DNA of 64,000 bases from Candidatus Acidiferrales bacterium (GTDB lineage Bacteria; Acidobacteriota; Terriglobia; Acidiferrales; UBA7541): contig CAWGXB010000043.1 in NCBI GenBank assembly GCA_963826335.1, positions 6,559 through 70,558 on the forward strand. Reading direction: 5' to 3'. Positions 1-32,183 of this stretch are shown one piece after another. A program made the position numbers and the translations under genes. The notes beneath the pieces were generated by a model. The model worked only from the letters and a program-made list of their open reading frames with translations. It was not told where the DNA came from and made no database searches. Positions within the stretch are counted from its first letter, which is position 1; each line of letters opens with the position of its first letter.

Positions 1-2
1 TC

Positions 3-911
3 GACGCGGAATTTCAAGTGAAAGGCGCGGAAGCAGACTACGCCAACCTGAAAGTGCAAGTTGACAGCGATTTGATGAACCAAAAGGCCATCGAAGCCGG
101 CGTGCGCAGCGATTACGAACAAGCCAAAATCCAGCACGAAGTGGACGCGAAACTGGTGGCGGAAGGTCTTGCGGCGGATGTTACGGAGCGTTTGTCTCGC
201 GTTAAGGAACAGCAGCTTGCGATTCGTGTGCAGCTCGAGGGCGAGCGCACCAAAGTTGCGGCGGATTCCGCGAAGGCACGGTTGGCTGCGCAGCAAGCAA
301 AGATCGACGAACAGAAAGCCCTGTACCAACTGAAAAAGAGCCAGGTAGATGCCTTGCACGTTCGCGCGGGCATCGATGGTGTGTTGCAGTTGGTGCCAGT
401 GGAAGTAGGCCAGCACGTGACCCCGGGCACAAACTTGGCGCGTGTGGCTGATCCCAAGGTGTTGAAGGCAGAAATCAAGATTGCAGAGACGCAAGCCAAA
501 GACGTGCTGCCGCTCCAAAAAGCGACCATCGACACGCGCAACGGAATCGTGAACGGGCACGTGGCGCGCGTCGACCCGTCCGTAATCAACGGCACGGTGA
601 CGGTGGATGTGACCATTGATGATCCTCTTCCGCCGGGCGCAAGAGCGGACTTGAGCGTGGATGGGACCGTAGAGCTGGAGAATTTGAAGAACGTGATGTA
701 TGTGGGGAGGCCGGTTCACGGCGCTTCGCAAAGTACCATCAGCTTGTTCAAACTGACGCCCGACGGTTCGGAGGCGGTTCGCACCAACGTAAAGCTGGGC
801 CGCAGTTCAGTGAATACCGTGGAAATTCTGGACGGATTGCAGGTGGGAGACCGCGTAATTCTGTCGGACATGTCGCAGTGGGATAACTACGATCGGATCC
901 GCCTGAAGTAA
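3..911 (+). CDS. MacA/HlyD-family periplasmic adaptor (membrane fusion protein), 5' end outside window
   Basis: The frame is open from nt 3 to TAA 909-911. A long Ala/Gln/Lys-rich coiled-coil hairpin is followed by a beta-barrel-like part (GIDGVLQLVPVEVGQHVTPGTNLARVADP). It lies directly upstream of MacB-type permease genes. Confidence 0.8.
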   Translation, partial: DAEFQVKGAEADYANLKVQVDSDLMNQKAIEAGVRSDYEQAKIQHEVDAKLVAEGLAADVTERLSRVKEQQLAIRVQLEGERTKVAADSAKARLAAQQAKIDEQKALYQLKKSQVDALHVRAGIDGVLQLVPVEVGQHVTPGTNLARVADPKVLKAEIKIAETQAKDVLPLQKATIDTRNGIVNGHVARVDPSVINGTVTVDVTIDDPLPPGARADLSVDGTVELENLKNVMYVGRPVHGASQSTISLFKLTPDGSEAVRTNVKLGRSSVNTVEILDGLQVGDRVILSDMSQWDNYDRIRLK

Positions 912-976
912 GCCTGTTGACGGGTGTGTAGCGCAGTTTGAAGCACAGAGTCGGAACTGGAGAGTTGGGGGAGCGA

Positions 977-3490
977 ATGCACGCGTTCTGGCAAGACGTA
1001 CGCTACGGTTTGCGGATGCTGGCCAAGAATCCTGGCTTCACAGTCGTTACCGTCCTGACGCTGGCGCTTGGCGTCGGCGCGACCACCGCGATCTTCAGCG
1101 TGATTTACGGCGTGCTGCTGCGGCCGCTTCCTTATAGCCATCCCGAGCAAATCGTTCATCTGTGGGAAATGAGCGACGAAGGCCACCGCATGAATTTCGC
1201 GGACCCGAATTTCGCTGACATGCACTCCCAGAATCACTCGCTGCAGGGAATCGCGGAGTACAACAACAGTTTGGAATCGGTTTCCGGAGGCAAGGAGCCG
1301 AGCCGCACGATGGTCGCCCACGTGTCGCACGATTTTTTCTCGGTGATGGGAGTGAATCCGGCGATTGGGCGCGGCTTCGCCCCCGAAGAGCAGCGCAACA
1401 ATGCGCCAGCGACCGCGCTAGTCAGCTACGCCTACTGGAAGCAGTCTCTCGGTGGCAATCAAGACTTCTCTTCGGTTCATTTGAAGCTTGAGGGGCAGGC
1501 CGCTTCGGTTATTGGGGTGTTGCCCGCCGGATTCCGCTTCCCTGATAACACCGACATCTGGATTGCTCGCGAAATCATGCCCACCCTTCCCAGCCGTTCG
1601 GCGCACAACTGGAACGTGATTGCCAGGCTGCGGGAGGGCACATCCGTCAGCGCCTCGCGCGCCGAACTTACCGGCATTGCCCAACGCCTGAAGCAACAAT
1701 TCGGCAACGATACAGCCATGGTCGGCGTGGCAATGGAACCGCTTCGCGAGGCGATGACCAGCAATGTTCGCCCGGCACTGATCATTCTGTTTGGCGCGTC
1801 TGGTTTTCTTCTGCTGATCGCGTGCGCCAACGTGGTGAATCTGATGCTGGCCCAGGCGGCGGCGCGCGAAAGGGAACTATCCATTCGAGCGGCGCTGGGC
1901 GCTAGGCGTAGCAGGCTGATTCGCCAGTTCCTGACAGAAGCATTTTTGCTTTCCACAATCGGAGGCGCGCTTGGCGTGCTTGCGGCGGTGTGGGGATTAA
2001 ACGGATTGCTGGCTATCGCGCCAGGAAATCTGCCGCGAGTAGAAGAAGTAGGCGTGAATGTGCCGGTACTGCTGTTTTCCCTGGCCGTCGTGTTTCTGGT
2101 GGCGATTGGATTGGGAATTTTCAGTGCTGTGCGCGCCACGGCCGGGGATCCTCGCGCAGCATTGAACGAAGGCAATCAGCGGCAATCAGGGTCGCTAGGA
2201 AAACAGAGGCTGGGTCGCCTGATCATCGCCGGTCAGCTGGCCACCACTCTCGTGCTGCTTGTTGGCGCAGGGCTTCTGGGTCGGAGCCTGTTGCGCGTGC
2301 TGTCGGTTGATCCGGGCTTTCGCACCGAAGGAGTGCTGACGATGGAGTTGGCGCTCCCCGACGATCCTACGAAGGCTCAACGAGTCCAGTTCCTGAATGA
2401 AGTGATCGCGCGGCTGCGCAATATACCTGGCGTACAGGAAGTCGGCGGCACCAATGTATTGCCGCTCACCGAGGGAGGCCGAGCTGACGGCGCCTACGTG
2501 GTCATGAACCCGGCGCAGATTTCACCGCGCACGCAGGAGCTGATCCGGCGCGTTGTGAATGGGAATCTGGATAAAGACCCTGCCTTGCTTGCCGAGTTCT
2601 CAAAATTCTTCGACGAAATCTTCAAAGATCAAGCCCACTTGGGCGAAGCCGACTACTGCGTCGCTTCGCAAGGCTTTTTCAGTACCCTGGGGATTCCGCT
2701 GCTGAGTGGCAGATTGTTCGACGCGCGCGACACGAAAGATTCGCAGCATGTCGCGGTTGTCAGCAAATCGCTGGCGGACGAGAAATGGCCGAATCAGAAT
2801 CCGATTGGCCAAACCGTGGAATTCGGAAATATGGATGGCGATCCGCGGCTGTTGACCATCGTCGGAGTCGTCGGTGACATGCGCGACCGCAGTCTGGAAT
2901 CCGCGCCGCGTCCCACCATCTACGTCGACTACCGCCAGCGGCCAACCGCGGCTCAGCGCTTCACGATTGTCATGCTCGCTCCCGGCAAGCCTGACGCCGT
3001 CTTTTCTTCCGCGCGTGAAATCGTTCGCAGCCTGGATCCCGACGTGCCGCCCCGCTTCAGCACCTTTTCAAATACCTTTGCCGCATCTCTGGGAGCGCGG
3101 CGCTTCAGCCTGCTGCTGGTGGGCATTTTTTCCGCCACGGCTCTGTTGCTGGCAATGGCGGGAATTTACGGCCTGACGGCCTACACCGTTGCGCAGCGCA
3201 CTCGCGAAATTGGCGTGCGCATGGCACTGGGCGCTTCTCGAGGAACGGTTTTGGGGATGGTTCTGAAACAAGGCGTGATCACTGGTGTTCTCGGCGTCGG
3301 CGCCGGAATTCTGGGCTCGCTGGTCTTAACTCGCTGGTTGCAATCCCAACTTTTTGGGGTGAGCGCGACAGATCCGGCAACGTTCGCGGGCGTCGCTCTC
3401 ATCCTGATTCTGGTGTCTCTGGCGGCTTGTTGGATTCCAGGACGCCGGGCGGCGCGTGTCGATCCGATGGTGGCGTTGAGGTACGAATGA
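977..3490 (+). CDS. ADOP-family duplicated MacB/FtsX-type ABC permease, copy 1
   Basis: ATG 977 follows GGGGGAG; the track start TTG 938 is an upstream extension. The N-terminus reads MHAFWQDVRYGLRMLAKNPGFT plus TM1. There are two large periplasmic domains, each followed by an FtsX-like TM bundle. The C-terminus is RRAARVDPMVALRYE. Confidence 0.9.
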   Translation: MHAFWQDVRYGLRMLAKNPGFTVVTVLTLALGVGATTAIFSVIYGVLLRPLPYSHPEQIVHLWEMSDEGHRMNFADPNFADMHSQNHSLQGIAEYNNSLESVSGGKEPSRTMVAHVSHDFFSVMGVNPAIGRGFAPEEQRNNAPATALVSYAYWKQSLGGNQDFSSVHLKLEGQAASVIGVLPAGFRFPDNTDIWIAREIMPTLPSRSAHNWNVIARLREGTSVSASRAELTGIAQRLKQQFGNDTAMVGVAMEPLREAMTSNVRPALIILFGASGFLLLIACANVVNLMLAQAAARERELSIRAALGARRSRLIRQFLTEAFLLSTIGGALGVLAAVWGLNGLLAIAPGNLPRVEEVGVNVPVLLFSLAVVFLVAIGLGIFSAVRATAGDPRAALNEGNQRQSGSLGKQRLGRLIIAGQLATTLVLLVGAGLLGRSLLRVLSVDPGFRTEGVLTMELALPDDPTKAQRVQFLNEVIARLRNIPGVQEVGGTNVLPLTEGGRADGAYVVMNPAQISPRTQELIRRVVNGNLDKDPALLAEFSKFFDEIFKDQAHLGEADYCVASQGFFSTLGIPLLSGRLFDARDTKDSQHVAVVSKSLADEKWPNQNPIGQTVEFGNMDGDPRLLTIVGVVGDMRDRSLESAPRPTIYVDYRQRPTAAQRFTIVMLAPGKPDAVFSSAREIVRSLDPDVPPRFSTFSNTFAASLGARRFSLLLVGIFSATALLLAMAGIYGLTAYTVAQRTREIGVRMALGASRGTVLGMVLKQGVITGVLGVGAGILGSLVLTRWLQSQLFGVSATDPATFAGVALILILVSLAACWIPGRRAARVDPMVALRYE

Positions 3491-4182
3491 TGAAGCAAAC
3501 GATTTGGCAAGACCTACGCTTCGGACTGAGTAGTATGGCGAAAAATCCCGGGCTCGCAGCCTTGGCGATTCTCCTGACCATTGCGCTTGGCCTCGGCACC
3601 GGCCTGGCGGTCTCTCTGCTCAACAGATCCGCGCACCGGCGCAATATGCAGGTGCGTGATGCGGGACAGTTGATGGTGATTGCCACGCGCGACTCCGACT
3701 CGCCAGCCAGCCTTTCCTTTTCGTATCCGATGAATCTGAACGTGGCGGAAAAGGAAGTTGTGCTGACCGACATGGACGACGAGTGCAAGGATGAAATCGA
3801 ACTGACGTATGGAGAGGGCGGCGAACACGTTCACGGAGAGCTTGTTTCCGGAAACTATTTTGAGGTGCTCGGCGTGCAACCTCTGCTTGGCCGCTTGATC
3901 GGCGAAGCGGACGACCACGAATCCATCACCTCGCCCGTTGCGGTGATCAGCCACGAGTTCTGGAAGCGCCGCTTCGGGATGGACCCTTCAATCATCAACC
4001 GCACTCTGATGTTGAACGGCCATCGCTTTACGGTGATTGGCGTTACTCCGCCGGGCTTTGTCGGCACGAATGGCTCGAAGAAAGCTGACATTCAAGTACC
4101 ACTATCGATCATGAAAGTATTCAGTTCGCCGGTCCTGCACGCCACCCGCATCGACCCGATGGTTGCACTGAGTTACGAATAG
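3487..4182 (+). pseudogene. Internally deleted ADOP permease remnant (231 codons, reading frame intact)
   Basis: ATG 3487 overlaps the upstream TGA (3488-3490). It keeps the ADOP N-terminus (MMKQTIWQDLRFGL..NPG, TM1) and the first part of the periplasmic domain (SFSYPM, ELVSGNYFEVLGV, HEFWKRRFG). This is joined directly to the family tail ATRIDPMVALSYE, so TM2-TM8 are absent. Confidence 0.6.
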
Positions 4183-4191
4183 GAGAACTTG

Positions 4192-6651
4192 ATGCAGACG
4201 CTTTGGCAGGACATTCGCTACGGGCTTCGCATGTTGGGAAAAAATCCCGGATTCACGGCGGTGGTCGTACTGACGCTGGCGCTGGGCATTGGCGCGAACA
4301 CCGCGCTGTTTTCGATCGTCAACGGAGTATTACTGAATCCGCTGCCGTTTGCAGAGCCCGACCGGTTGGTGTCGATGTATACGCGGACTCCGGAGTTCAC
4401 GCGCGCTTCCGTTTCCTATCTGAATTTTTTGGACTGGCGCCGCGACAATCATTCCTTCTCCGCTATAGCAGCGTTCCGCGGAGAGAATTATAACCTTTCG
4501 GGCATCGGCGACGCGCAACGGCTCAGTGCGAACATGGTTTCGGCCGAGTTTTTTCCGATCCTTGGAGTGAAGCCCAGCGTTGGCCGCTTTTTCACCGAAC
4601 AGGAAGACCAGGTGGGCGCCGCGCCGGTAGCGGTCATCAGCGACGGTTTGTGGAAGCGCAAGTTCGCATCCTCTCCGGACGCGGTCGGCAAGTCGCTCAA
4701 CTTGAACGGAACGCTGTACACACTTGTCGGTGTCCTTCCCGCGCACTTTCAGTTCATCAGCGGTAATGGCAATTTCCATGATGACGCCGAAGTGTTTACG
4801 CCGATTGGCCAGTGGAACGACCCTTTGTTCCGCGATCGGCACACCGGCATGGGAATGGATGTAGTAGGCAGGTTGAAGCCAGGAGTTACGTTGCAGCAGG
4901 CGACTCTGGACATGCAGGCGGTTGCGGCTCATCTGGCCGAAGCCTACCCGGACATTGACAAGAACTCAGGTATCAATGTTTTAGCCCTTAAAGAGGATGT
5001 GGTTGGAGATATTCGGCCGTTTCTGTTGGTGCTGCTGGCTGCGGTCGGCTTCGTACTGCTAATCGCCTGCGCCAATGTCGCGAATCTACTTCTGGCGCGC
5101 TCGACGGGCAGAACCAGGGAATTCGCTATTCGGACGGCGATGGGTGCAAGCCCGGGTCGCGTGGTTCGCCAACTTTTGACCGAAAGCATCCTGTTGGCGC
5201 TGGCTGGCGGCGGGTTGGGAGTGCTGATCGCGGCGTGGGGCACGCGGGCGGCAATCAAAGTGCTGCCCGAGGCGCTGCCGCGCGCCGAGGACGTTCATAT
5301 TGATGGACGCGTGCTGCTTTTCGCCATGGCGGTTTCTCTGTTGGCAGGAATTTTGTTTGGGTTAGTGCCCGCTCTCAGGGCTTACCGAACCGACATTCAC
5401 GAAACACTTAAAGAAGGCGGGCGCGGAGGAAGCGGCACTCGGCACCGCACGCAAAGTATTTTCGTTGCAGTGGAAATGGCCATGGCGCTGGTGCTGCTGG
5501 TTGGCGCCGGCTTGATGATTCGCAGTTTGGGAAAACTCTGGAATACCGATCCGGGATTTGACCCGAACAATGTCGTGCGGGTCAGTTTTGCGTCCTCCAA
5601 ACCATTGGGCGCTACGCCTGCGGCCACCCGTGCTGCATTTCGGCAAATTCACGATGCCCTGGCGGCAATTCCGGGCGTGCAATCCGTTTCGCTGTCCGTC
5701 GGGTCGACCCCCATGCAAGGTGATTCGGACCTTCCTTTGTGGTTGGAAGGAGAGCCCAAGCCTGCTTCGCAGAGCGAGATGAAAGCCTCGCTCTTCTATT
5801 TCACGCAACCGGATTATCTAAAGGTCATGAAGACTCCGCTGAAGCGCGGGCGGTTTCTGACCGAATCAGACGGCGAGGGTTCGCCCGCAGTCATGGTGAT
5901 CGACGACCAGTTTGCCAAGTTGTACTTCGCCGGCCAGGATCCCATCGGTAAGCACGTGAATCTGGGAATTCTGAACATGACCGCCGAAGTCGTCGGAGTT
6001 GTTGGCCACGTCAAGCAGTGGGGATTGGACAATGACCCTCCAGGTGCAATCCAGGCGCAATCTTATTCCCCGATCTCACAACTCCCCGACGGCATTTTTT
6101 CGCTTCTTGAGCACGGCACTGCCGCCGTCATTCGGACCGAGGGTTCGCCGCTTGCTCTAATTGGTTCGATTACCAACGCGGTGCAAGGCGTGAATAGCGA
6201 CATCGTCGTTTATGGCCCAGAAACTATGAGCTCCATAATTTCGGAATCGCTCTCGGCGAAGCGTTTCGTCATGGTGCTGCTTGGCGTGTTTGCGGCGCTC
6301 GCAGTAATACTCTCCGCCGTCGGGATTTACGGCGTGATTTCCTACATCGCCGCGCAACGCACCCAGGAGATCGGAATTCGCATGGCTTTGGGCGCAGGAA
6401 GAGGCAACGTGCTGATCATGGTGCTGCGCGAGGCGGGCACGATGGCACTGCTTGGCGTGGGCATCGGTCTGGTGGCGGCATTTGCGCTGACGCGGTTGAT
6501 GGCCAGCATTCTTTTCGGGGTCAGCACGCACGATCCGCTAACCTATCTCGGGGTTGCAGCGTTATTGATGTTAGTCGCGCTGGTGGCATGCTACATCCCG
6601 GCGCGGCGAGCAACCCGCGTCGATCCCATGGTGGCATTGCGCTATGAGTAG
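4192..6651 (+). CDS. ADOP-family duplicated MacB/FtsX-type ABC permease, copy 2
   Basis: AGGAGA at 4181-4186 precedes ATG 4192 (track start TTG 4189). N-terminus MQTLWQDIRYGLRMLGKNPGFTAV and C-terminus RRATRVDPMVALRYE. About 819 aa with duplicated periplasmic-domain/FtsX architecture. Confidence 0.9.
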   Translation: MQTLWQDIRYGLRMLGKNPGFTAVVVLTLALGIGANTALFSIVNGVLLNPLPFAEPDRLVSMYTRTPEFTRASVSYLNFLDWRRDNHSFSAIAAFRGENYNLSGIGDAQRLSANMVSAEFFPILGVKPSVGRFFTEQEDQVGAAPVAVISDGLWKRKFASSPDAVGKSLNLNGTLYTLVGVLPAHFQFISGNGNFHDDAEVFTPIGQWNDPLFRDRHTGMGMDVVGRLKPGVTLQQATLDMQAVAAHLAEAYPDIDKNSGINVLALKEDVVGDIRPFLLVLLAAVGFVLLIACANVANLLLARSTGRTREFAIRTAMGASPGRVVRQLLTESILLALAGGGLGVLIAAWGTRAAIKVLPEALPRAEDVHIDGRVLLFAMAVSLLAGILFGLVPALRAYRTDIHETLKEGGRGGSGTRHRTQSIFVAVEMAMALVLLVGAGLMIRSLGKLWNTDPGFDPNNVVRVSFASSKPLGATPAATRAAFRQIHDALAAIPGVQSVSLSVGSTPMQGDSDLPLWLEGEPKPASQSEMKASLFYFTQPDYLKVMKTPLKRGRFLTESDGEGSPAVMVIDDQFAKLYFAGQDPIGKHVNLGILNMTAEVVGVVGHVKQWGLDNDPPGAIQAQSYSPISQLPDGIFSLLEHGTAAVIRTEGSPLALIGSITNAVQGVNSDIVVYGPETMSSIISESLSAKRFVMVLLGVFAALAVILSAVGIYGVISYIAAQRTQEIGIRMALGAGRGNVLIMVLREAGTMALLGVGIGLVAAFALTRLMASILFGVSTHDPLTYLGVAALLMLVALVACYIPARRATRVDPMVALRYE

Positions 6652-6660
6652 GAGACCTTG

Positions 6661-11624: not shown

Positions 11625-11800
11625 TGTTGCGCTCAATAGCGGGGAACTTTTGCGGTGGTCTGTGTCGTATATCAGGGTACAGAGGTGTGGCTGTCGGGCC
11701 CATTCGTTGGATTGGATGCAAATGTTGCAACGGCGAGGTGCGTTTCTGGTTGGCTTTGAACGATCTCATGAATCCCGAACTTAGGAGAACAAATGACTGA
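11624..11800 (+). CDS. Hypothetical Cys/Gly-rich small ORF (58 codons) filling the permease-ATPase gap
   Basis: Translated by hand as MLRSIAGNFCGGLCRISGYRGVAVGPIRWIGCKCCNGEVRFWLALNDLMNPELRRTND. Its ATG overlaps the copy-4 TAA (TAATG) and its TGA overlaps the start of the ATPase gene (ATGACTGA). AAGG lies 7 nt upstream. It is below the 60-aa track cutoff, its third-position GC is only about half, and I recognise no homolog. Confidence 0.2.
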   Translation: MLRSIAGNFCGGLCRISGYRGVAVGPIRWIGCKCCNGEVRFWLALNDLMNPELRRTND

Positions 11801-12503
11801 CACAAATAATGTGCTGATCAAGATGGAAGGCGTCAAGAAGGTGTTCCTGACGGACGAGGTGGAAACTCACGCGCTGGAAGAGATTCACCTGGAGATTCAT
11901 CGAGGGCAGTACGTCTCGATCTCCGGGCCATCCGGCTGCGGCAAGTCCACTCTATTGTCGATTCTGGGCTTGCTGGACTCGCCCACGGAAGGGAAGTACC
12001 TGCTGAACGGGCAGCCAGTGGCGAATCTCACCGCCAGCGAACGCACCCGCATCCGTAATCGCGAGATTGGCTTCATTTTCCAGGCGTTCAACCTGATTGG
12101 CGACCTCACGGTTTACGAGAACGTTGAGTTGCCACTCACCTATCGCGGCACCAGTTCGGCGGAGCGCAAGCAGAAGGTGGAGCATGCCCTCGAACGCGTC
12201 GGCATGGCTCACCGCATGCGCCACTACCCCTCGCAACTTTCCGGCGGTCAGCAACAGCGCGTGGCCGTGGCCAGAGCATTGGTTGGCGATCCACTGATCC
12301 TGATGGCCGATGAGCCCACCGGAAACCTGGACTCGCGCAATGGCGAGGCGGTCATGGAATTGCTCCGCGACCTGCACCGCAATGGCGCCACCATTTGCAT
12401 GGTGACGCACGACGAGCGCTACGCTCACTTCGCCGAACGCACCATCCGCTTGTTTGACGGACGCGTGGTGGAAGAAACCCAGGAAGCTCACGCCGCGGTG
12501 TAA
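11793..12503 (+). CDS. MacB/LolD-type ABC transporter ATP-binding protein 1
   Basis: Walker A GPSGCGKST, Q-loop IGFIFQ, signature LSGGQQQRVAVARAL, Walker [14 protein letters not shown] and H-switch VTHD. AGGAGA lies upstream of the ATG. Confidence 0.92.
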   Translation: MTDTNNVLIKMEGVKKVFLTDEVETHALEEIHLEIHRGQYVSISGPSGCGKSTLLSILGLLDSPTEGKYLLNGQPVANLTASERTRIRNREIGFIFQAFNLIGDLTVYENVELPLTYRGTSSAERKQKVEHALERVGMAHRMRHYPSQLSGGQQQRVAVARALVGDPLILMADEPTGNLDSRNGEAVMELLRDLHRNGATICMVTHDERYAHFAERTIRLFDGRVVEETQEAHAAV

Positions 12504-14981
12504 TTGAGAACTGAGGGGCCGCAATTGCACAGCTTTCTGCAAGACATCCGCTATGGCCTCAGGATGCTGAGGAAAAATCCTGGTTTCACGGCAATTGCGG
12601 TGCTGACGCTGGCTCTGGGCATCGGTGCGAACACCGCGCTGTTTTCCGTGATTAACGGAGTGTTGCTGAATCCTCTGCCTTTCTCGCAGGCCGACCAGTT
12701 AGTCACGCTCAGCGAGAGCAAGCCAAATTTTGAGTACGGCTCCATCTCGTATCCCAATTTTCGTGACTGGCAAAAAGAAAATCGCACGCTCTCTTCTGTT
12801 GCCGCCTTTCGCAGCTATGCCTTCAGTTTGACCGGTGCCGGCGAAGCTCAACAAGTGAAAGGAGAATTCGTCTCCTCAGATACTTTCCCGATGCTGGGCG
12901 TAAAGCCTCTCGTCGGGCGCACCTTCGTTTCCGGTGAAGACGAGATCGGAGCGGCGCCCATCGCTATGCTTGCGGAAGGCTTGTGGCGTCGCAAGTTCGG
13001 TGCGAGGGAGGATATTCTCGGGAAAGCCATCAACCTCGACGGAAAGAGCTACGTCGTTGTGGGTGTTATTCCGGCCAGTTTTCACATTGCGGTTCCCTCG
13101 TTTTCCGACAATCGGGAAGTGTTCGTGCCGCTCGGGCAGTGGAGCAATCCTCTGCTGAATCATCGGGAAGCTGGCTTGGGAATTCATGGCATGGGCCGTC
13201 TGAAACCGGGCGTCACGATTCAGCAAGCGCAAGCGGATATGGACGGCGTTACAAGTAGCCTGGCGGCGGCTTATCCTGATGCCGACAAGGGAATCAGCGC
13301 CAAACTTGTACCCATTCGCCGGTCAATGCTCGGCGGAATCCAACCAACACTGCTGATGCTGTTCGCCGCGGTTGGATTTGTGCTTTTGATCGCGTGCGTC
13401 AACGTGGCCAATCTGCTGCTGGCGCGCTCGACCGGCAGAGCCCGCGAATTTGCCGTGCGCACCGCGCTGGGCGCTCCGCGGAGCCGCGTGATTCGCCAGT
13501 TGCTCACCGAGTGCATTTTGATTTCGATGATTGGCGGAGCGCTGGGCTTGCTTCTGGCAGTTTGGGGCACGCGTTCCGCTCTGGGAGTGTTGCCGCAGGC
13601 TTTGCCGCGTACGGAGCAAGTCGGGCTCGATGCGCGCGTTTTGCTCTTCACCTTCGGAATTTCGTTACTCGCCGGAATACTGTTTGGGCTCGCACCGGCG
13701 TTCAAAACGTCACGCACCAACCTGACCGAAACCTTAAAGCAGGGCGGGCGTGGCACAACCGCTTCCCGTCATGGCGCGCAAGCCGTATTCGTCGTTGCCG
13801 AAGTGGCGCTGGCGCTGGTGTTGCTCATCGGCGCAGGGCTGATGGTGCGGAGCTTGTCGCGCTTGTGGAGAACCGATCCCGGTTTTGATGCACACAACGC
13901 CATGACGTTTGGACTCTCGCTGCCTCCCTCCCTGATGAACGCCAAACCCGACGCAGTTCGCGCTTCCTTTCGCGAATTTGACCGCAGGATGGCAGCACTT
14001 CCCGGCGTAGCGGGCATATCGCAAACCTGGGGCGCAGTGCCGTTGGTCGACGATGATGAGCAACTGTTTTGGCTGGAGGGCCAGCCAAAACCCACCAGCC
14101 AAAACGACATGAACTGGGCGCTCAACTACATCGTCGAGCCGGATTATCTCCGCGTGATGGGCATCCCGTTGCGACAGGGAAGATTCTTCACACCGCAGGA
14201 TAACGAGCACTCGCCGCTGGTGATTGCCGTCGACGACGTTTTCGCGCAAAAATATTTTCCAAACGAAAATCCCGTCGGCAAGCGCATCCATATCGACCGC
14301 TTCGATCAGCCTGCTGAAATCGTAGGGTTGGTGGGCCACGTGAAGCAGTGGGGACTGGACTCGGACGACACCGAATCGCTGCGCGCACAACTCTACATTC
14401 CATGCATGCAGATGCCCGACGCATTCATCGGCCTGGTTCCTTCGGGAGGCCAGGCGGTGGTGCGTTCCACGGGCGCGGTACCCGATCTCTACGCTTCGAT
14501 ACGACGCGCCAATGCGGAAATGAGCGGCGAACAGGTACTCTTTGGCGCGCAAACGATGGAGCAGGTCATTTCCGATTCGCTGGCGCCGCGTCGATTCTCG
14601 ATGATCCTGCTGGGAACGTTTGCCGGCCTGGCGCTGCTGCTCGCCAGCATCGGAATTTACGGCGTGATTTCCTACGTTGTTGGCCAACGTGCGAATGAAA
14701 TTGGCGTTCGCATGGCGTTGGGCGCGAAATCGCACGATATTCTGCGTCTTGTCCTGGAAGATGGCGGGAAATTGGTGTTGATAGGAATCGCGATCGGACT
14801 GGTTGCCGCGTTTGGGCTGACGCGATTGATCAAAAGCTTTTTGTACGGCGTCGATGCCGCTGATCCACTTACGTTCGCGGCCGTCGCCGTCTTGTTATCG
14901 CTTGTGGCGCTGGCGGCCTGTTATGTGCCGGCGCGCCGCGCCGCCCGCGTCGACCCGGTGATCGCCCTTCGTTATGAATAA
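12504..14981 (+). CDS. ADOP-family duplicated MacB/FtsX-type ABC permease, copy 5
   Basis: TTG 12504 abuts the ATPase TAA; an alternative TTG at 12525 follows GAGGGG. N-terminus LHSFLQDIRYGLRMLRKNPGFTAI and C-terminus RRAARVDPVIALRYE. Confidence 0.88.
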   Translation: MRTEGPQLHSFLQDIRYGLRMLRKNPGFTAIAVLTLALGIGANTALFSVINGVLLNPLPFSQADQLVTLSESKPNFEYGSISYPNFRDWQKENRTLSSVAAFRSYAFSLTGAGEAQQVKGEFVSSDTFPMLGVKPLVGRTFVSGEDEIGAAPIAMLAEGLWRRKFGAREDILGKAINLDGKSYVVVGVIPASFHIAVPSFSDNREVFVPLGQWSNPLLNHREAGLGIHGMGRLKPGVTIQQAQADMDGVTSSLAAAYPDADKGISAKLVPIRRSMLGGIQPTLLMLFAAVGFVLLIACVNVANLLLARSTGRAREFAVRTALGAPRSRVIRQLLTECILISMIGGALGLLLAVWGTRSALGVLPQALPRTEQVGLDARVLLFTFGISLLAGILFGLAPAFKTSRTNLTETLKQGGRGTTASRHGAQAVFVVAEVALALVLLIGAGLMVRSLSRLWRTDPGFDAHNAMTFGLSLPPSLMNAKPDAVRASFREFDRRMAALPGVAGISQTWGAVPLVDDDEQLFWLEGQPKPTSQNDMNWALNYIVEPDYLRVMGIPLRQGRFFTPQDNEHSPLVIAVDDVFAQKYFPNENPVGKRIHIDRFDQPAEIVGLVGHVKQWGLDSDDTESLRAQLYIPCMQMPDAFIGLVPSGGQAVVRSTGAVPDLYASIRRANAEMSGEQVLFGAQTMEQVISDSLAPRRFSMILLGTFAGLALLLASIGIYGVISYVVGQRANEIGVRMALGAKSHDILRLVLEDGGKLVLIGIAIGLVAAFGLTRLIKSFLYGVDAADPLTFAAVAVLLSLVALAACYVPARRAARVDPVIALRYE

Positions 14982-14993
14982 AAAGGAGCAAAC

Positions 14994-15698
14994 GTGCAGC
15001 CTCTGATTCAGTTGAAAAATCTGGAGAAAGCCTTCGAAGCTGGGGGGCAGAAATTCTTCGTCTTGCGGCGCATCAACCTGGACATCCAACCCGGGGAATT
15101 CGTCACCATCATGGGACCGTCCGGGGCAGGGAAGTCCACTTTGCTCAGCATTATCGGAATGCTCGATGGCGCTTGGACGGGCGAGTACTTCTTCGGCGAG
15201 CAACCGGTTCACAAACTCAGCGTGAAGCAGCGCAACGAGCTGCACAAATACAACATCGGTTTCGTGTTTCAGAGCTACCATCTCATCGACACGCTTACCG
15301 TGTACGAAAATCTTGAAGTGCCTCTCTCTTACAAAAATATTCCCCACAAAGAACGCTCCAGCCTGGTTTGCGACGCGCTCGACCGTTTCAACATTGTGGG
15401 CAAGAAAGATCTGTTCCCTAATCAGCTCTCTGGCGGACAGCAACAACTGGTCGGCGTGGCGCGCGCCGTAATCCAGAATCCCAAACTGATTCTTGCTGAC
15501 GAGCCAACCGGCAATCTTCACTCTGCCCAGGGTGAAGAAATCATGGAGTTGTTCAAGCGGCTCAACGATGCGGGCACCACTATCATTCAGGTGACGCACT
15601 CGGAGAAAAACGCTTCGTACGGCAATCGCATCATCAACCTGCGCGATGGTTGGGTGGTTACTGAAACGCCCACCACGGTTGCGGGCTCGGCCCAGTAA
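14994..15698 (+). CDS. MacB/LolD-type ABC transporter ATP-binding protein 2 (divergent signature/D-loop)
   Basis: GTG 14994 follows AAGGAG. Walker [10 protein letters not shown], signature [15 protein letters not shown], Walker [13 protein letters not shown] and H-switch VTHS. Confidence 0.9.
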
Positions 15699-15754
15699 CG
15701 TTCCTTTGGTTCGGCCACGACCTAAAGCTCAATCTTCGCCAAGGAGACTTCACC

Positions 15755-18226
15755 ATGGGAATTGTTCAGGATTTGCGCTACGCGCTTCGCATGCTGGCAA
15801 AATCTCCCGGCTTCACCGCGGTTGCTGTACTTACGCTGGCGCTCGGCATTGGCGTGAACACCACCGTGTTCAGCGTGATTAACGGCCTGCTTCTTCGTCC
15901 GATGCCCGTGCCGCAGCCGGAGCAGATTACGGTGTTGGGCGCGCAGCAGGAAGGCAGTCTGGATTATCAGCCGTTCTCGTATCCAGATTACCTGGATATT
16001 CGAAGCCAGGCCTCTGACGTCTTCAGCGACGTCCTGGCATACCGCGTTTCGTTGGTCGGACTCACCGTGGACGGCAAGGGCGACCACTGCGTCATCAGTC
16101 GCGTAACCGGGAATTATTTTACGGTTGCGGGAATTCAGCCTTTTCTGGGGCGCTTGATTCTTCCTTCGGAAGGACAAACGCCCGGCGCAGATCCGGTTGT
16201 TGTGCTCGGATATGCCTACTGGCAAAAGCGTTTTGGCGGCGACAAAAGCATCATCGGCAAGCAAGTGCAGATGGACGGACACCCGGTAACGATTATCGGG
16301 GTTACTCCAAAAGGTTTTCCGGGCATGTATTCGTTCCTGAATATGGACGCTTACATTCCCCTGAGCGCTGACGCAGGTCTGGGCGGAAATACATCCGCGG
16401 CGGAGACGTGGACGCACCGCGAAGAGCGCTCGCTGGAGTTGAAAGGGCGGTTGAAGCCTGGCGTGGACATCAAGCAAGCCACCGCCGCGCTGCAACTGGT
16501 GGCGCACCGCCTGGCCGAGCAACATCCAGAGACCGACAAGGGAATTAAGTTCAGCGTGTTCCCGGAGCGGCTCGCTCGCCCGGAACCTGATCCGGATGGC
16601 ACGGTTCCGAAAGTTTCTCTGGCCTTTACCGCGCTTGCGGTCATGGTGCTGTTGGTCGCGTGCTTCAACATTGCCAACATTTTATTGGTGCGCGCCACCA
16701 CGAGGCAGCGCGAAATGGCGATTCGAACCGCGGTTGGCGCAGGATTGGGACGGCTGGTGCGGCAAAGCATGACGGAGAGTTTGTTGCTCGCTATTCTTGG
16801 AGGTGGCGGCGGACTGCTGCTCGGATGGTGGGCGTCGGGATTCCTCAGTTCGTTGCCCTTAGGCACGGATTTGCCGGTCGAATTCAATTTTCAGCCGGAC
16901 GCGCGCGTTTTCTTTTTGACGGCGGTGGTGGTCCTGCTGGCTGCGGTGGTCGTCGGCGTGGTGCCGGCGCTGCCTTTGACGAAGACAGACGTGAACAGCG
17001 TGTTGCGCGAAGGCGGCCGCGGCGCTTCCGAAGGGCGCAAGCGGAATTTCATGCGCAGTACGCTGGTGGTGGCGCAACTGGCGGGTTCATTGCTGCTTCT
17101 TGTGGTGGCGGGATTGTTTGTGCGTAGCCTTGGCAAGGCGGAGAAACTCTATCTGGGTTTTGATCCCGACCACATCATTAACGTCTCCATGGACATTCAC
17201 GAAATTGGCTACCAGGACCCTCAAGGTAAGGAATTTTATCGCAGCGCGGAAGAGCGTATTCGCGCGCTGCCCGGCGTTGTGTCGGTCACGCAGGCGTTTT
17301 CCATTCCCATGGGACTGATCAGCGCCTCAGACCAGGTGATTCCCGTGGACCATCCGCTCGAGCCCGGGCAGGTGCCACCCAACGTTTTCGACAACATGGT
17401 GACTCCCAGCTATTTCGAAACGATGCGGATTCCTTTGAAGCGTGGACGGCTATTCACCGACGCCGACAATGAAAATGCTCCGCATGTGGCGGTGATTAAC
17501 GAGACCATGGCGAAGAAGTTCTGGCCCAACGAAGACGCGCTCGGCCGGAGATTCAAGAGTAAAGATAGGGAGCACAAGTTTACAGATGTCGAAGTCATCG
17601 GGATCGTACAAGATGGCAAGTACAAGGGAATCGTCGAAGATGCCATGCCTTTCTTTTACGTGCCTCTCAGCCAGGAGTACATTTCTCTGCGCAACATCCA
17701 GGTGCGCACTTCCGTGCCGCCGGAAAACCTGGAACTGCAGATCGCTAATACGATTCGCGAACTTGCGCCGGGCCTTCCTGTCACCGTGAAAACCATGAAT
17801 CAGGACCTGCAGGGACTTAACGGATATATGTTCTTCCGATTGGGCGCGCAATTAAGCGGCACCATGGGCTTGCTGGGATTGGTGCTGGCGGTGGTGGGCG
17901 TGTACAGCGTGGTGTCTTACGCCGCCGCACAGCGTACTCATGAGATCGGCATTCGCATGGCGTTAGGCGCCGAGCGCAGGGACGTTTTGAAAATGGTATT
18001 GTCCCGCAGCCTGGTGATGATTGCTGTTGGCGTTGCCGTCGGATTGCTGATCTCGTTCGCTGGCGCGCGCGCAATTGCCAGCCTGCTGGTGGGAGTCAGC
18101 CCAAGCGATCCCGTCACTTTTGGCGCGGTGCTGTTGCTACTGCTCGGTGTTGCGCTACTGGCGTGTTTGATTCCCGCGTATCGCGCCACGCGAGTCGATC
18201 CTCTTGTCGCGCTGCGCTACGAATAG
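15755..18226 (+). CDS. ADOP-family duplicated MacB/FtsX-type ABC permease, copy 6
   Basis: ATG 15755 follows AAGGAG. N-terminus MGIVQDLRYALRMLAKSPGFTAV and C-terminus YRATRVDPLVALRYE. Confidence 0.9.
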   Translation: MGIVQDLRYALRMLAKSPGFTAVAVLTLALGIGVNTTVFSVINGLLLRPMPVPQPEQITVLGAQQEGSLDYQPFSYPDYLDIRSQASDVFSDVLAYRVSLVGLTVDGKGDHCVISRVTGNYFTVAGIQPFLGRLILPSEGQTPGADPVVVLGYAYWQKRFGGDKSIIGKQVQMDGHPVTIIGVTPKGFPGMYSFLNMDAYIPLSADAGLGGNTSAAETWTHREERSLELKGRLKPGVDIKQATAALQLVAHRLAEQHPETDKGIKFSVFPERLARPEPDPDGTVPKVSLAFTALAVMVLLVACFNIANILLVRATTRQREMAIRTAVGAGLGRLVRQSMTESLLLAILGGGGGLLLGWWASGFLSSLPLGTDLPVEFNFQPDARVFFLTAVVVLLAAVVVGVVPALPLTKTDVNSVLREGGRGASEGRKRNFMRSTLVVAQLAGSLLLLVVAGLFVRSLGKAEKLYLGFDPDHIINVSMDIHEIGYQDPQGKEFYRSAEERIRALPGVVSVTQAFSIPMGLISASDQVIPVDHPLEPGQVPPNVFDNMVTPSYFETMRIPLKRGRLFTDADNENAPHVAVINETMAKKFWPNEDALGRRFKSKDREHKFTDVEVIGIVQDGKYKGIVEDAMPFFYVPLSQEYISLRNIQVRTSVPPENLELQIANTIRELAPGLPVTVKTMNQDLQGLNGYMFFRLGAQLSGTMGLLGLVLAVVGVYSVVSYAAAQRTHEIGIRMALGAERRDVLKMVLSRSLVMIAVGVAVGLLISFAGARAIASLLVGVSPSDPVTFGAVLLLLLGVALLACLIPAYRATRVDPLVALRYE

Positions 18227-18235
18227 GAAGGGGCC

Positions 18236-20677
18236 ATGGCGACCGTATTGCGAGACTTGCGATCCGCGGTTCGTTTCCTGCGCCAGAGCCCGGCCTTCAC
18301 GTTCGTCGCCGTGCTGACGCTGGCGCTGGGGATCGGCGCAAGCACCGCAACCTTCAGCGTAATCTACGGCGTTTTAATCCGCCCGCTGGCCGTTCCTGAA
18401 GCTCACCAAGTGGTTGAGGTGGTTCGGAAATATCAAGGCGAACTGAGCGGCGATTCGTTCACCTATCCGCAATTCCGTTACGTGCAAGAGCACAGCGAAT
18501 GGCCCGCTGCTATCGCGGCCTTCACGCACGTTGGCCTGAATCTTTCCTCCGATAGCGGAACGCAACGCGTCAGCGCGCTTCACGTTTCGTCGGACTATTT
18601 TTCGGCGCTGGGTGTCCATCCGTTGTTGGGGCGCGATTTCAGCGCGGAAGAGGATCGCGACCCGTCCGCCCGCGTAGTTATACTCAGCCACACGCTATGG
18701 GCGCAGCAGTTCGGCAGCGACCCCTCGGTATTGGGCAAGACCATTCATCTTAACGACGGCGCTTACCGGGTGATCGGCGTTATGCCACCGCCAGCGGCCG
18801 ACGTGCAGTTAGACCTGGTTCCTCCGGCTTTCGGTGATTTGCAGCGGATCGATCTGTGGGCCACGCTCGCCCCGGTGGCCGATTCTGTTGGCTCTGGCGA
18901 GAATCTGGAGGTCGTTGCGCGGGTGAAGCCGGGCTTTACGATGCAACAAGTGGCGGCGCAGCTTGATGCGCTTACCCCTTCGTTTCAAACGGACCGGTTC
19001 GACGGCGAAGGTCGCAAGCAGGTCCTCGGGCTCAGCTCGATACAAAATGTGCTCGCTGCGGATGTCAGCACTTATTTGTGGATTTTGTTGGGCGCTGTAT
19101 CCTTCGTTCTTCTCATCGCCTGCGCCAATATTTCCAATCTATTGCTTGCGCGAGCCTCCGGCCGCACCAAAGAGGTGGCTTTGCGTTCCGCGCTCGGGGC
19201 CGACCGCGGTACTCTCGTCCGCCAATTCCTGTCCGAAAGTTTGCTGCTCGCGGCTGTTGGAGGTGTCGCGGGACTGTTCGTCGCACAAATTGTCGCGGCG
19301 GGTTTGGTGCGGTTCGCTCCCCTTCAATTGCCACGCGCCACGGAGATTCGCGTCGATGGATGGGCGTTTCTGTTCGCGCTGGGCATCACCATCATTTCAG
19401 GGGCGCTGGCCGGCATAGTTCCCGCATTGCAAGCGTCAAAAACCGACGTCAGCACCATGCTGAAGGAAAACGCCGCGCAAAGTTCGGGGAGCCGTCGTGG
19501 CGGGCGATTCCGCGCAGCGCTGGTCATTTCGGAATTCGCTCTTTCGCTTATGTTGCTGATCGGAGCGGCTCTGCTTGGTCAATCGTTTCTGAATCTTCTG
19601 CAGGTGAATCCAGGGTTCCAGACGAACCACTTGCTGTCGGCGGAAATCTGGCTAACGGGAACGCGGATTCATTCCACCGCTGAGCTCACCTCCTACTACA
19701 ACGAACTGACATCACGCCTGAAACAGCTGCCTGGTGTGCAAGACGCGGCAATGGTCTCCTCCGGCCAGCCTTTGGAACGGGGTGGAAATGCCAGCGCGTC
19801 CGTGAATGGCGCGTCGGAATCGACAGATTTTCGCGTGGTCACGCCGGAATACTTTCGAACCCTGGGCGTGGCGGTGCGGGATGGGCGCGACTTTGCGGCT
19901 TTCGACGGCGAAAGCTCGGAGCCCGTTGCGATTGTGAACGAAGCCTTCGTGCGGAAGCTGCTTAAGGGTAGAGATCCCTTCACCTCGACCGTAAGGTTGG
20001 AGGGTGGCGATGCGGCACGCCGCGTGGTGGGCGTTGTTGCCAACGTTAAACCGTTTGTCGGCGACTCCGTGCCGCCGACGATCTTCCTGCCCAGTGCACA
20101 GACGAAGTTCAGTCTGATCCTTGGCTACGACGTGTGGTTTGCAACGCATGTTCTGGTGCGCACGACCGGGGACCCGCTTGCTCTGGCCGCGACCGTCGAC
20201 AGAACGATTCGCGCAACCGATTCCAGTGTTCCCGTGGGGCATCTGCTTTCCATGGAGCAAATCCTTTCGCGTTCGCTGGCGACGCAGCGCTTCATGATGA
20301 CGGTTGTAGGAGTTTTTGCCGTGCTCGCGTTGGCGCTTGCTTCCGTCGGCATTTATGGCCTGATTGCGTTTTCCGTTTCGCAACGGACGCACGAGATGGG
20401 AATCCGCATGGCTCTGGGCGCGAATGCCACCTCTGTGTTCGGCATGGTTCTGCGCGAAGGAACGCGTCTGGCCGCTGTGGGCACGGCGATCGGGATCGTG
20501 GGGGCCTTCGTCCTTGGCCGAGCCATCGCTGGGGCGCTGTTTGGCGTGCAACCTGGCGATTGGCGGGTCATGGCGGTCGCGTCGATTTTTCTGCTGGTTG
20601 TCGCGTTTCTGGCTTGTTACTTTCCGGCGCGGCGCGCGACGAAGGTTGATCCGATGGTCGCGCTGAGGTACGAATAG
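18236..20677 (+). CDS. ADOP-family duplicated MacB/FtsX-type ABC permease, copy 7
   Basis: ATG 18236 follows GGAAGGGG. N-terminus MATVLRDLRSAVRFLRQSPAFTFV and C-terminus RRATKVDPMVALRYE. Confidence 0.9.
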   Translation: MATVLRDLRSAVRFLRQSPAFTFVAVLTLALGIGASTATFSVIYGVLIRPLAVPEAHQVVEVVRKYQGELSGDSFTYPQFRYVQEHSEWPAAIAAFTHVGLNLSSDSGTQRVSALHVSSDYFSALGVHPLLGRDFSAEEDRDPSARVVILSHTLWAQQFGSDPSVLGKTIHLNDGAYRVIGVMPPPAADVQLDLVPPAFGDLQRIDLWATLAPVADSVGSGENLEVVARVKPGFTMQQVAAQLDALTPSFQTDRFDGEGRKQVLGLSSIQNVLAADVSTYLWILLGAVSFVLLIACANISNLLLARASGRTKEVALRSALGADRGTLVRQFLSESLLLAAVGGVAGLFVAQIVAAGLVRFAPLQLPRATEIRVDGWAFLFALGITIISGALAGIVPALQASKTDVSTMLKENAAQSSGSRRGGRFRAALVISEFALSLMLLIGAALLGQSFLNLLQVNPGFQTNHLLSAEIWLTGTRIHSTAELTSYYNELTSRLKQLPGVQDAAMVSSGQPLERGGNASASVNGASESTDFRVVTPEYFRTLGVAVRDGRDFAAFDGESSEPVAIVNEAFVRKLLKGRDPFTSTVRLEGGDAARRVVGVVANVKPFVGDSVPPTIFLPSAQTKFSLILGYDVWFATHVLVRTTGDPLALAATVDRTIRATDSSVPVGHLLSMEQILSRSLATQRFMMTVVGVFAVLALALASVGIYGLIAFSVSQRTHEMGIRMALGANATSVFGMVLREGTRLAAVGTAIGIVGAFVLGRAIAGALFGVQPGDWRVMAVASIFLLVVAFLACYFPARRATKVDPMVALRYE

Positions 20678-20794
20678 GTTTGGTATCCCAGCGCGCATTC
20701 CGTCGACGGCACATTGGTCAAGCGGCGAAGCTCACTGCAAACCTGGCCTGCTCCCGTGGAAAGCACGGTAAACTGTCCACCACATCCGATCTCT

Positions 20795-23563: not shown

Positions 23564-23636
23564 CTCTGCTAGACTGGCTGGCGTAGTGACAATAGAACAA
23601 AAAATCAATCGTTCGTTTCCAGCGGAGAGCCGCACC

Positions 23637-27758: not shown

Positions 27759-27768
27759 TGCAAGCTCC

Positions 27769-32181: not shown

Positions 32182-32183
32182 AG

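Follow-up and report, generated by a model that had tools for sequence, protein, structure and literature searches.

The acidobacterial duplicated orphan permeases (ADOPs) are a recognized family, captured by the model TIGR03434 ("ADOP family duplicated permease"), and the word "orphan" in their name implies the absence of an adjacent ABC (ATP-binding cassette) ATPase gene. One metagenome-assembled genome, described in 2023, carries 102 ADOP copies, most of them transcribed, and their role has only been guessed at (PMC10564751). An ADOP cluster with ATP-binding transporter genes is also already known, as genomic island 43 of Psychroflexus torquis was reported in 2014 to hold about ten ADOP paralogs together with other transporter genes, some of them with ATP-binding regions, and to be highly expressed (PMC3914696). 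The type VII ABC fold is likewise known; its described fused permeases, BceB and YbbP, have two linking helices that bring them to 10 transmembrane (TM) helices, and fused permeases always occur with separately encoded nucleotide-binding domains (NBDs) (PMC5985334). In YbbAP the ATPase:permease stoichiometry is 2:1 (PMC12646458). Here we analyze an ADOP gene block in 64,000 nt of contig CAWGXB010000043.1 from Candidatus Acidiferrales bacterium, a soil acidobacterium; the whole of this stretch is called the window. We propose, with a probability of roughly 60%, that positions 3-23508 of the window encode a sigma-54-controlled, modular type VII ABC machine in which one adaptor and two ATPases energize interchangeable permease cassettes.

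The genes of the block, designated M (adaptor), P (ADOP), A (ATPase), R (regulator) and H (kinase), and the largest gap between them are as follows.

3-911, + strand: adaptor M, C-terminal 302 aa, of MacA/HlyD type (Pfam HlyD_3, HlyD_D23); its start and promoter lie beyond the window edge
977-3490, + strand: ADOP permease P1, 837 aa (TIGR03434 873 bits; two MacB_PCD, two FtsX)
3487-4182, + strand: truncated ADOP derivative, 231 aa (ADOP model positions 1-201, then an in-frame tail)
4192-6651, + strand: ADOP permease P2, 819 aa (TIGR03434 976 bits), used for structure prediction with AlphaFold2
6661-9168, + strand: ADOP permease P3, 835 aa (TIGR03434 911 bits)
9165-11624, + strand: ADOP permease P4, 819 aa (TIGR03434 889 bits), a strain-variable cassette
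11625-11792, + strand: 168-nt intergenic gap 5′ of A1
11793-12503, + strand: ATPase A1, 236 aa, MacB/LolD type (PF00005)
12525-14981, + strand: ADOP permease P5, 818 aa (TIGR03434 970 bits), with an alternative TTG start at 12504
14994-15698, + strand: ATPase A2, 234 aa, MacB/LolD type, second clade (PF00005)
15755-18226, + strand: ADOP permease P6, 823 aa (TIGR03434 884 bits)
18236-20677, + strand: ADOP permease P7, 813 aa (TIGR03434 846 bits; two MacB_PCD, two FtsX)
20795-22171, + strand: NtrC-type sigma-54-dependent response regulator R (Response_reg, Sigma54_activat, HTH_8)
22168-23508, + strand: histidine kinase H (HisKA, HATPase_c), overlapping the regulator gene by 4 nt

The original prediction described eleven co-directional genes at 3-20677, opened by a MacA/HlyD adaptor and with two MacB/LolD-type ATPase genes inside, and its gene content, order and strand are all borne out. 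The junctions within this interval measure, in order, 65, -4, 9, 9, -4, 168, 0 or 21, 12, 56 and 9 nt, in agreement with its account of tight spacing broken by gaps of 65, 168 and 56 nt; the 0-or-21-nt value between A1 and P5 reflects the ambiguous start of P5 (12504 TTG or 12525). The extent of the block, however, was drawn too short, as the unit runs past 20677 to 23508 and takes in a sigma-54 regulator and a histidine kinase that had been overlooked; the division of the ATPases into two clades and the strain-to-strain turnover of permease cassettes, both described below, had also gone unnoticed. The rest of the window holds no further ADOP, ATPase or adaptor gene, and with two ATPase genes inside the block the "orphan" feature of the family name does not apply to this locus.

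The membrane components belong firmly to the ADOP family. All seven intact permeases exceed the curated TIGR03434 cut-off of 622.3 bits, at 846-976 bits, and the truncated copy falls below it at 169 bits. Each intact protein contains two MacB_PCD (PF12704) and two FtsX (PF02687) domains, with each FtsX domain preceded by a MacB-like periplasmic domain. The AlphaFold2 model of P2, built from a 43-sequence alignment (mean predicted local distance difference test score 79.4, predicted TM-score 0.67), begins with an N-terminal helix at residues 2-17 and TM1 at 19-48, followed by one periplasmic domain and TM2-4; a disordered cytoplasmic linker (407-416) then leads to TM5, the other periplasmic domain, TM6-8 and, last, a short C-terminal helix (812-818). 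The predicted total is thus eight TM helices and two periplasmic domains, both rich in beta structure, and the halves are joined without linking helices. In a Foldseek search the best full-length match of the model is E. coli YbbP (9GE6_A; E 1e-18, TM-score 0.44), and its halves match MacB, Spr0695, LolC/E, YtrF, HrtB and BceB. Both halves also match MacB in sequence, and the ADOP tail aligns to the MacB C-terminus, which is the minor coupling helix in contact with the NBD (PMC5985334); the equivalence of tail and minor coupling helix proposed earlier agrees with this alignment. The features by which type VII ABC permeases are defined (PMC5985334) are all present as modeled, namely a unit of four TM helices in which a large periplasmic domain separates TM1 from TM2, an amphipathic N-helix, a major coupling helix that lies between TM2 and TM3, and a minor helix at the C-terminus. 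An ADOP is accordingly predicted by the model to be two MacB-like four-helix units fused head to tail, a direct-fusion, 8-TM variant of the type VII fold. Such a protein would supply the complete membrane part in one chain, so that two separately encoded ATPase subunits would be needed per permease.

The two ATPases of the block are suitable candidates for these subunits. The closest PDB relatives of A1 and A2 are Spr0694 (5XU1_A), MJ0796, the MacB NBD, LolD, YbbA, YtrE and BceA. Their best NCBIfam matches are DarD, LolD and the MacB NBD, and neither protein reaches the equivalog cut-offs of LolD, FtsE, MacB or DarD. A1 and A2 are 46% identical to one another, and 26 array-linked ATPases fall into two deep clades, an A1-like clade that is 69-95% identical across loci and includes the ATPase right after the adaptor wherever such a layout occurs, and an A2-like clade that is 64-88% identical. 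The Walker A, Q-loop, signature, Walker B and H-loop motifs are intact in both clades, which differ at 27 clade-fixed positions, including the D-loop (LD in A1, LH in A2) and residues beside the Q-loop. By their sequences A1 and A2 appear to be cognate NBDs of the MacB/LolD/FtsE type with intact catalytic motifs. Both are present in every locus visible in full (at least 15 loci in the kinase-based sample described next, and more in the permease-based one).

Comparison with 160 other loci places the block in its wider context. On the permease side, 80 loci from species-representative genomes were scanned with the window proteins (Terriglobia, including Acidoferrales/Acidiferrales, Blastocatellia/Pyrinomonadaceae, Vicinamibacteria, Bryobacterales, and one Binatus), and, reciprocally, 80 metagenome loci were collected whose kinase is 57-95% identical to the window kinase. 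Of the genome loci, 21 contain one or two ADOPs with both flanks visible and without an ATPase or adaptor nearby, and these are true orphans. Another 39 are arrays of at least three ADOPs, and an adaptor and/or ATPase lies within the fetched region in 14 of them; examples are MAPPPPPxPAP (on the same contig running into PPRH), MPPPPAApRH, MAPPPPPPPP and PPPPPPRH. Of the 12 arrays whose 5′ end is visible, 8 start with the adaptor, and in many arrays A1 comes directly after it, ahead of five to eight ADOPs. On the kinase side, the sequence upstream of the regulator gene extends for 2.6 kb or more in 37 of the 80 loci; 32 of the 37 have ADOP and/or A1/A2 genes directly upstream on the same strand, and two more have them slightly further off. 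Recurrent layouts include M-P-A1-P-A2-R-H (L095, L098, L103), M-P-A1-A2-R-H (L112) and A1-P-P-P-A2-R-H (L148), and two loci are permease-less, with the order M-A1-A2-R-H (L154, 3468-9303; L159, 5536-11305), where a Pfam scan of the fetched flanking genes found no FtsX or MacB_PCD domain. L159 also has an extra A1-type ATPase gene just downstream of the kinase. A1 is most often preceded by the adaptor (11) or a P3-like ADOP (8), and A2 by a P2/P5-like ADOP (18) or A1 (7); the gene that most often follows A2 is the regulator (20).

Adaptor, ATPases, regulator and kinase are far better conserved across genomes than the permeases. Identity to the window proteins in other genomes is 69-94% for A1, 64-85% for A2, 64-81% for R, 48-72% for H and 53-75% for M, and the best ADOP match is mostly 36-60%, with none above 42% for P4 and P7. 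P1, P2, P3, P5 and P6 do have orthologs in other genomes. In sum, M, A1, A2, R and H constitute a conserved orthologous core across Acidobacteriota with the layout M-[P]-A1-[P]-A2-[P]-R-H, and the permeases are fast-turning cassettes in its three slots. The window block is an expanded form of this common core, M-[P1 rem P2 P3 P4]-A1-[P5]-A2-[P6 P7]-R-H (rem, the truncated copy). The search for ADOP arrays with embedded ATPases in other Acidobacteriota, which had been suggested at the outset, therefore found many, and the view of the window locus as something exceptional is not upheld, the same architecture being common across the phylum.

Within the permeases, conservation is concentrated at the parts that would face the ATPases. 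Mean pairwise identity among the seven paralogs is 37% overall (33-54% for individual pairs, P2/P5 being the closest at 54%). It reaches 69% over the N-terminal 50 alignment columns, 77-83% in the tail, 58-73% for the N-helix with TM1, and 52% and 57% in the two major coupling helices, as compared with 45% in the TM bundles and 29% and 27% in the periplasmic domains. The contrast between termini and periplasmic domains in the original prediction is thus real when computed by domain, although both of its poles were overstated: the termini are strongly conserved without being close to invariant, and the periplasmic domains are divergent yet alignable, all of them matching MacB_PCD at E 1e-32 to 1e-43. 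Nor is this pattern peculiar to the locus. The tail is carried by 216 of 233 complete ADOP open reading frames (ORFs) in the loci of other genomes, the terminal motif patterns retrieved at least 593 relatives among species-representative genomes, and the protein database holds at least 8,000 relatives of P2 at E <= 1e-30; the conserved termini are a family-wide ADOP signature. A further feature is the asymmetry between pseudo-symmetric elements, as the free ends are conserved far above their counterparts at the fusion joint (TM1 73% vs ~35% in the TM5 region; tail 83% vs 37% in the post-TM4 helix), which is unexplained.

Several lines of evidence indicate that the paralogs are old and are being maintained. 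Identity at fourfold-degenerate sites is 34% in the tail, 46% at the N-terminus and 34-41% elsewhere, against a random expectation of 31%, which rules out gene conversion as the source of the conserved termini; since these sites are saturated even there, the termini must be kept by selection on the protein. The same saturation renders the ratio of nonsynonymous to synonymous substitution rates between paralogs meaningless, and the corresponding polymorphism ratio (pN/pS) between strain orthologs was used in its place. Many metagenome contigs encode an identical A1 protein, and the comparison covered six sister loci, of which L004 is the window's strain and the others are 88-99% identical in DNA. 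Among these strains, pN/pS is 0.03-0.09 for the intact permeases, 0.07-0.09 for their periplasmic domains, 0.02 for the N-terminus, 0.00 for the tail, and 0.00-0.04 for the elements equivalent to the NBD-contacting parts of MacB. The ATPases are similarly constrained, with 0.00 for A1 (0 nonsynonymous vs 273 synonymous differences) and 0.01 for A2, and the truncated copy has a value of 0.15. Saturated synonymous sites together with strain pN/pS of 0.03-0.09 identify the seven permeases as old, maintained paralogs, and all copies, apparently the truncated one included, are under purifying selection.

The truncated copy retains the N-terminal helix, TM1 and a portion of the first periplasmic domain, to which the tail (...RIDPMVALSYE) is joined in frame. 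Because its ORF is intact in all six sister contigs with pN/pS of 0.15, it may be a functional single-pass protein instead of a dead remnant. Truncated ADOPs of this "N-terminus plus tail" form are seen in three independent arrays (window 3487-4182; L044 15265-15768; L007 18857-19768).

The sister strains differ in whole permease genes, which gives a direct view of cassette turnover. P4 is missing from L001-L003 and L006; after A1, a different ADOP distant from every window paralog is found in L001, L002 and L006, and yet another in L003; and L005 has an additional ADOP between P6 and P7. Some strains (L001, L006) carry frameshifted ADOP copies. P3 has a chimeric 3′ end in L001 and L002 (window 9100-9170 and 11560-11660 compared with ~9740-9870 of L001/L002): this end follows window P3 up to ...CGACGCGC, continues with 41/41 bases of the window P4 tail, and runs on into sequence like the spacer downstream of P4 in the window. 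The junction sits within the codons for RRATRIDPMVALRYE, and, because it falls inside the tail-coding sequence, that sequence appears to have acted as a recombination site in these two strains. L003 and L006 show a second junction ~10 nt further downstream.

The adaptor, of which the window holds the C-terminal part, can be followed in full in the sister locus L003. Its ortholog there has 417 aa, an N-terminal TM helix and, as judged from sequence, a coiled-coil region of ~110 aa forming a long alpha-hairpin, so that it is predicted to combine the membrane anchor and alpha-hairpin of a tripartite-pump adaptor. The HlyD_3/HlyD_D23 domains of the window protein and the L003 score against RND_mfp (100.3 bits, cut-off 94.9) support the original assignment to the MacA/HlyD type; the best PDB match, which is weak, is MacA 4DK0. 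In the sister contigs the block starts with the adaptor gene, which is preceded by a gene on the opposite strand.

A sigma-54-type element, AGGTACCCATCTTGCG (GG-N8-TTGC), lies ~40 nt upstream of the adaptor start in the sister contigs. Of 11 loci, 5 have the pattern GG-N8-TTGC(G) at a distance of 27-48 nt before the adaptor start, two of the five (L014 and L041) being related, against a background of 2.6% per scanned interval (binomial P = 5e-6), and L009, L054 and L085 have variants of the element 5′ of the adaptor. In many loci, orthologs of R with 64-81% identity close the ADOP array on its 3′ side. The promoter element 5′ of the adaptor and the conserved sigma-54 activator at the 3′ end together support sigma-54-dependent expression of the block but do not prove it. 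The partner kinase has two TM helices joined by a loop of 6-10 aa (~8 residues in the window) and no periplasmic sensor domain, a topology that is the same in nine orthologs.

Signals internal to the block were also sought. The sigma-54 consensus has 29 matches across the window against 38.9 expected, at or below chance. Neither a canonical promoter of the sigma-54 or sigma-70 type nor a terminator or Rfam match is found in the 168-nt gap before A1; the best sigma-54 candidate there, TGGATGCAAATGTTGCA, reads GG-N11-GC, with a spacing one base too long, and was rejected. An Rfam scan of the entire window gave no match. Because sigma-70 promoters and intrinsic terminators in 1-20000 are not enriched over shuffled sequence, no internal transcription units can be defined.

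Two side observations concern regulators in other loci. A response regulator combining a receiver (REC) with a SpoIIE/PP2C phosphatase, absent from the window, is encoded inside some ADOP arrays, usually beside the A2-type ATPase (L014 15275-16489; L041 20202-21491; L044 8624-9934; also L047, L067 and L071). Of ten ORFs upstream of solitary ADOPs, chosen crudely, one encodes PadR (L082).

A shared engine is the simplest reading of these data because two NBDs are needed per ADOP, yet there are two ATPase genes for seven ADOPs and none for the dispersed orphans. It is also favored by the tight constraint on the equivalents of MacB's NBD-contacting elements in all paralogs, and by the existence of permease-less cores. 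The original prediction had suggested that a few ATPases and one adaptor serve many permeases, and this is strengthened by the conserved core, the permease turnover and the permease-less cores, the sharing of A1/A2 and the adaptor being what we infer from stoichiometry and comparative genomics. In the proposed mechanism, A1 and A2 would either pair as a heterodimer or each form a homodimer and, together with the adaptor, would serve all permeases of the block, and probably also ADOPs from other parts of the genome. What each assembled pump handles would be determined by the divergent periplasmic domains. Given the adaptor hairpin, MacB-style mechanotransmission can be envisaged, in which substrate from the periplasm or outer leaflet would be expelled via the adaptor and an unlinked TolC-like channel; candidate substrates are antimicrobial peptides or toxins, lipids, and the cell's own exported products. 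The downstream regulator would drive the block from the sigma-54 promoter ahead of the adaptor gene, and the kinase, having no periplasmic sensor domain, probably senses through the membrane or via the transporters themselves, by analogy with the Bce modules.

Certain observations weigh against this proposal. Arrays L023, L028, L039 and L081 have a visible 5′ end and neither adaptor nor ATPase. The canonical sigma-54 element precedes only about half of the adaptor-first arrays, and L048 has a sigma-70-like promoter instead. The periplasmic domains, at pN/pS of 0.07-0.09, are under purifying selection, with no sign of positive selection at the strain time scale and so none of an arms race. P3-like ADOPs tend to precede A1 and P2/P5-like ADOPs to precede A2, as if particular permeases went with particular ATPases. 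Lastly, the scanned ORFs of the window yield no TolC/OEP family match, in accord with the original prediction that no outer-membrane factor gene is present, and none is found beside the arrays of L007, L028, L041, L074 and L085 (upstream side); the genes flanking arrays in other genomes are unrelated housekeeping genes with no TolC among them. A channel gene could lie elsewhere in the genome, as tolC does with respect to macAB in E. coli.

A more ambitious possibility, which we advance tentatively, is that A1 and A2 form an obligate heterodimer acting, with the adaptor, as a genome-wide motor for all ADOPs, among them the dispersed orphans, which number in the dozens. This motor would be controlled by sigma-54, and the kinase may sense in a transporter-coupled manner. 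The heterodimer would dock on the two non-equivalent cytoplasmic faces of every ADOP, one offering the N-helix and coupling helix 1, the other coupling helix 2 and the C-terminal helix. Such an engine would explain why the permeases are orphans, why A1 and A2 strictly co-occur, why there are M-A1-A2-R-H loci with no permease, and why conservation differs between free ends and fusion joint.

The main rival to a shared engine holds that A1 and A2 are private to their adjacent permeases, after the pattern of an ancestral P-A1 / P-A2 pair of ordinary transporters, and that other ADOPs use other ATPases or none. The frequency of the minimal layout M-P-A1-P-A2-R-H (L095, L098, L103), the neighbor preferences of A1 and A2 noted above, and the tight P5-A2 (12 nt) and A1-P5 (0 or 21 nt) junctions are what such pairing would produce. 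It fits poorly with the placement of A1 between the adaptor and a run of five to eight ADOPs in many arrays, with cores that have no permease in cis, with the strong purifying selection on coupling helices and C-terminal helix in all seven paralogs, and with a window that offers no other ATPase gene, and we consider it unlikely. Somewhat less likely still is that the permeases are a battery of sensors that detect ligands and signal to the sensor-less kinase in the way BceAB signals to BceS, with sigma-54 gene regulation and not bulk export as the main output. The conserved architecture of the kinase (two TM helices, a loop of 6-10 aa and no periplasmic domain), its almost constant linkage, with the regulator, to ADOP or A1/A2 genes, and the REC-PP2C regulator in some arrays all point in this direction, and there is precedent in the Bce modules, where a type VII-like transporter is reported to be bound to an intramembrane-sensing kinase (PMC10314905, PMC11009047). 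Sensing alone, however, would not explain why a long-hairpin adaptor typical of TolC-docking pumps opens the block, and, as sensing and detoxification coexist in Bce modules, this reading overlaps with that of a shared export engine more than it excludes it. Recent tandem amplification or decay of a paralog array without division of labor, which tandem co-directional paralogs, one truncated copy and the frameshifted copies in L001 and L006 might suggest, and which the original prediction had named as the case that would count against it, is refuted by paralogs only 33-54% identical with saturated fourfold sites, by strain pN/pS of 0.03-0.09 (0.15 for the truncated copy), and by the orthologs of P1, P2, P3, P5 and P6 in other genomes.

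Beyond the block, the remainder of the window contains the following groups of genes.

26337-32298, - strand: a cluster like a soluble NAD(P)-linked [NiFe] hydrogenase, with a NiFeSe_Hases large subunit, an Oxidored_q6 small subunit, a Fer2_4/NADH-G-type Fe-S protein, and a 1091-aa fusion of a NuoF-like part (Complex1_51K, NADH_4Fe-4S) with Pyr_redox_2
33024-39432, + strand: a run of predicted extracytoplasmic proteins, namely an HZS_alpha (hydrazine synthase alpha middle) protein, an FG-GAP/UnbV_ASPIC protein, a beta-propeller-cytochrome c/CCP_MauG-like fusion, and a Reg_prop protein
40787-43500, + strand: two tandem Peripla_BP_6 (branched-chain amino-acid-type) binding proteins, with no adjoining ABC importer genes among the scanned ORFs
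50075-62553, - strand, plus 23586-25163, 43535-44983 and 47726-50068: a sugar-utilization-like region with a PfkB kinase, an SIS protein, GatZ/KbaZ, 647-aa and 506-aa proteins without a Pfam match, and a 1227-aa TonB-dependent-like outer-membrane protein (CarboxypepD_reg and OMP_b-brl_4); GH39, GH30 and melibiase-like glycosidases are nearby

ADOP permeases are among the largest paralog families of soil Acidobacteriota, and the conserved core provides concrete candidates for the missing ATPases and the regulator of these orphan permeases, which makes the question of their energy source directly testable. With two ATPases, one adaptor and seven permeases, the block is a compact test system. In the searchable literature we found no description of ADOP energization or of an adaptor-A1-A2-regulator-kinase core, nor of two ATPase clades, permease-less cores, tail-mediated cassette turnover or any ADOP function. 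If the sharing proposed here is correct, the locus would be a clear case of one ATPase/adaptor set used combinatorially by many type VII ABC permeases, and the MacB superfamily would gain a directly fused 8-TM topology beside the 10-TM BceB and YbbP (PMC5985334).

Set against the systems described to date, the window permeases agree with the ADOP family in their scores above the cut-off, their two FtsX and two MacB_PCD domains, and their N- and C-terminal signatures, and depart from it in that the family name implies no ATPase neighbor whereas the window and many other arrays have ATPase and adaptor genes in cis. The closest cluster by content, that of Psychroflexus torquis, comes from Bacteroidota, is compared by its description only, and was presented without a core, a regulator or a sharing model. 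DarBCD is also a trio of fused permease, adaptor and ATPase, and DarD is the best NCBIfam match of both window ATPases. The block is nevertheless rejected as a darobactin exporter of this kind because its scores are far under the equivalog cut-offs (DarD 264 and 241 vs 375 bits; DarC 55-57 vs 450; DarB, a 777-position model, 22-33 vs 700) and no biosynthetic genes for ribosomally synthesized and post-translationally modified peptides are found near it.

The BceAB-BceRS modules of Firmicutes likewise combine a fused type VII-like permease and a separate ATPase with a kinase that has no extracellular sensor domain, and in the ADOP loci too a kinase of the intramembrane-sensing type, with its minimal loop, adjoins transporter genes (32 of 37 loci). 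BceB, however, has 10 TM helices, with its only extracellular domain placed between TM7 and TM8, as against a predicted 8 TM helices and two periplasmic domains in ADOPs; BceR is OmpR-type, whereas the window regulator is REC-Sigma54_activat-HTH_8; and Bce modules have one permease each, no adaptor, and belong to a different phylum and cell envelope type. YbbAP(-TesA) shares with the block a single-chain, pseudo-dimeric type VII permease and a separate ATPase, there at 2:1 (PMC12646458), but YbbP counts 10 TM helices, including two that connect its halves, where ADOPs are predicted to be direct 8-TM fusions, and YbbAP comprises one permease, one ATPase type and the partner TesA, with no adaptor.

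The resemblance to the tripartite efflux pump MacAB-TolC lies in ADOP halves that match the membrane and periplasmic domains of MacB, in ATPases nearest to MacB/LolD NBDs and in an adaptor nearest to MacA, and the amphipathic N-helix, major coupling helix and C-terminal helix all have ADOP counterparts. MacB itself has a fused NBD, forms homodimers and is the one permease of its operon; in the window the halves are fused, the NBDs are separate and of two types, seven alternative permeases accompany one adaptor, and the neighborhood contains no TolC gene. In group II ECF transporters, as with multitask ATPases such as MsiK, one shared energizing module serves many interchangeable specificity components, some of them encoded elsewhere, and the ECF module contains two different ATPases, EcfA and EcfA'. 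These are importers of an unrelated membrane fold, and the likeness would be functional only. Should A1 and A2 prove to form a heterodimeric engine, the system encoded here would be an exporter-side counterpart of the group II ECF transporters.

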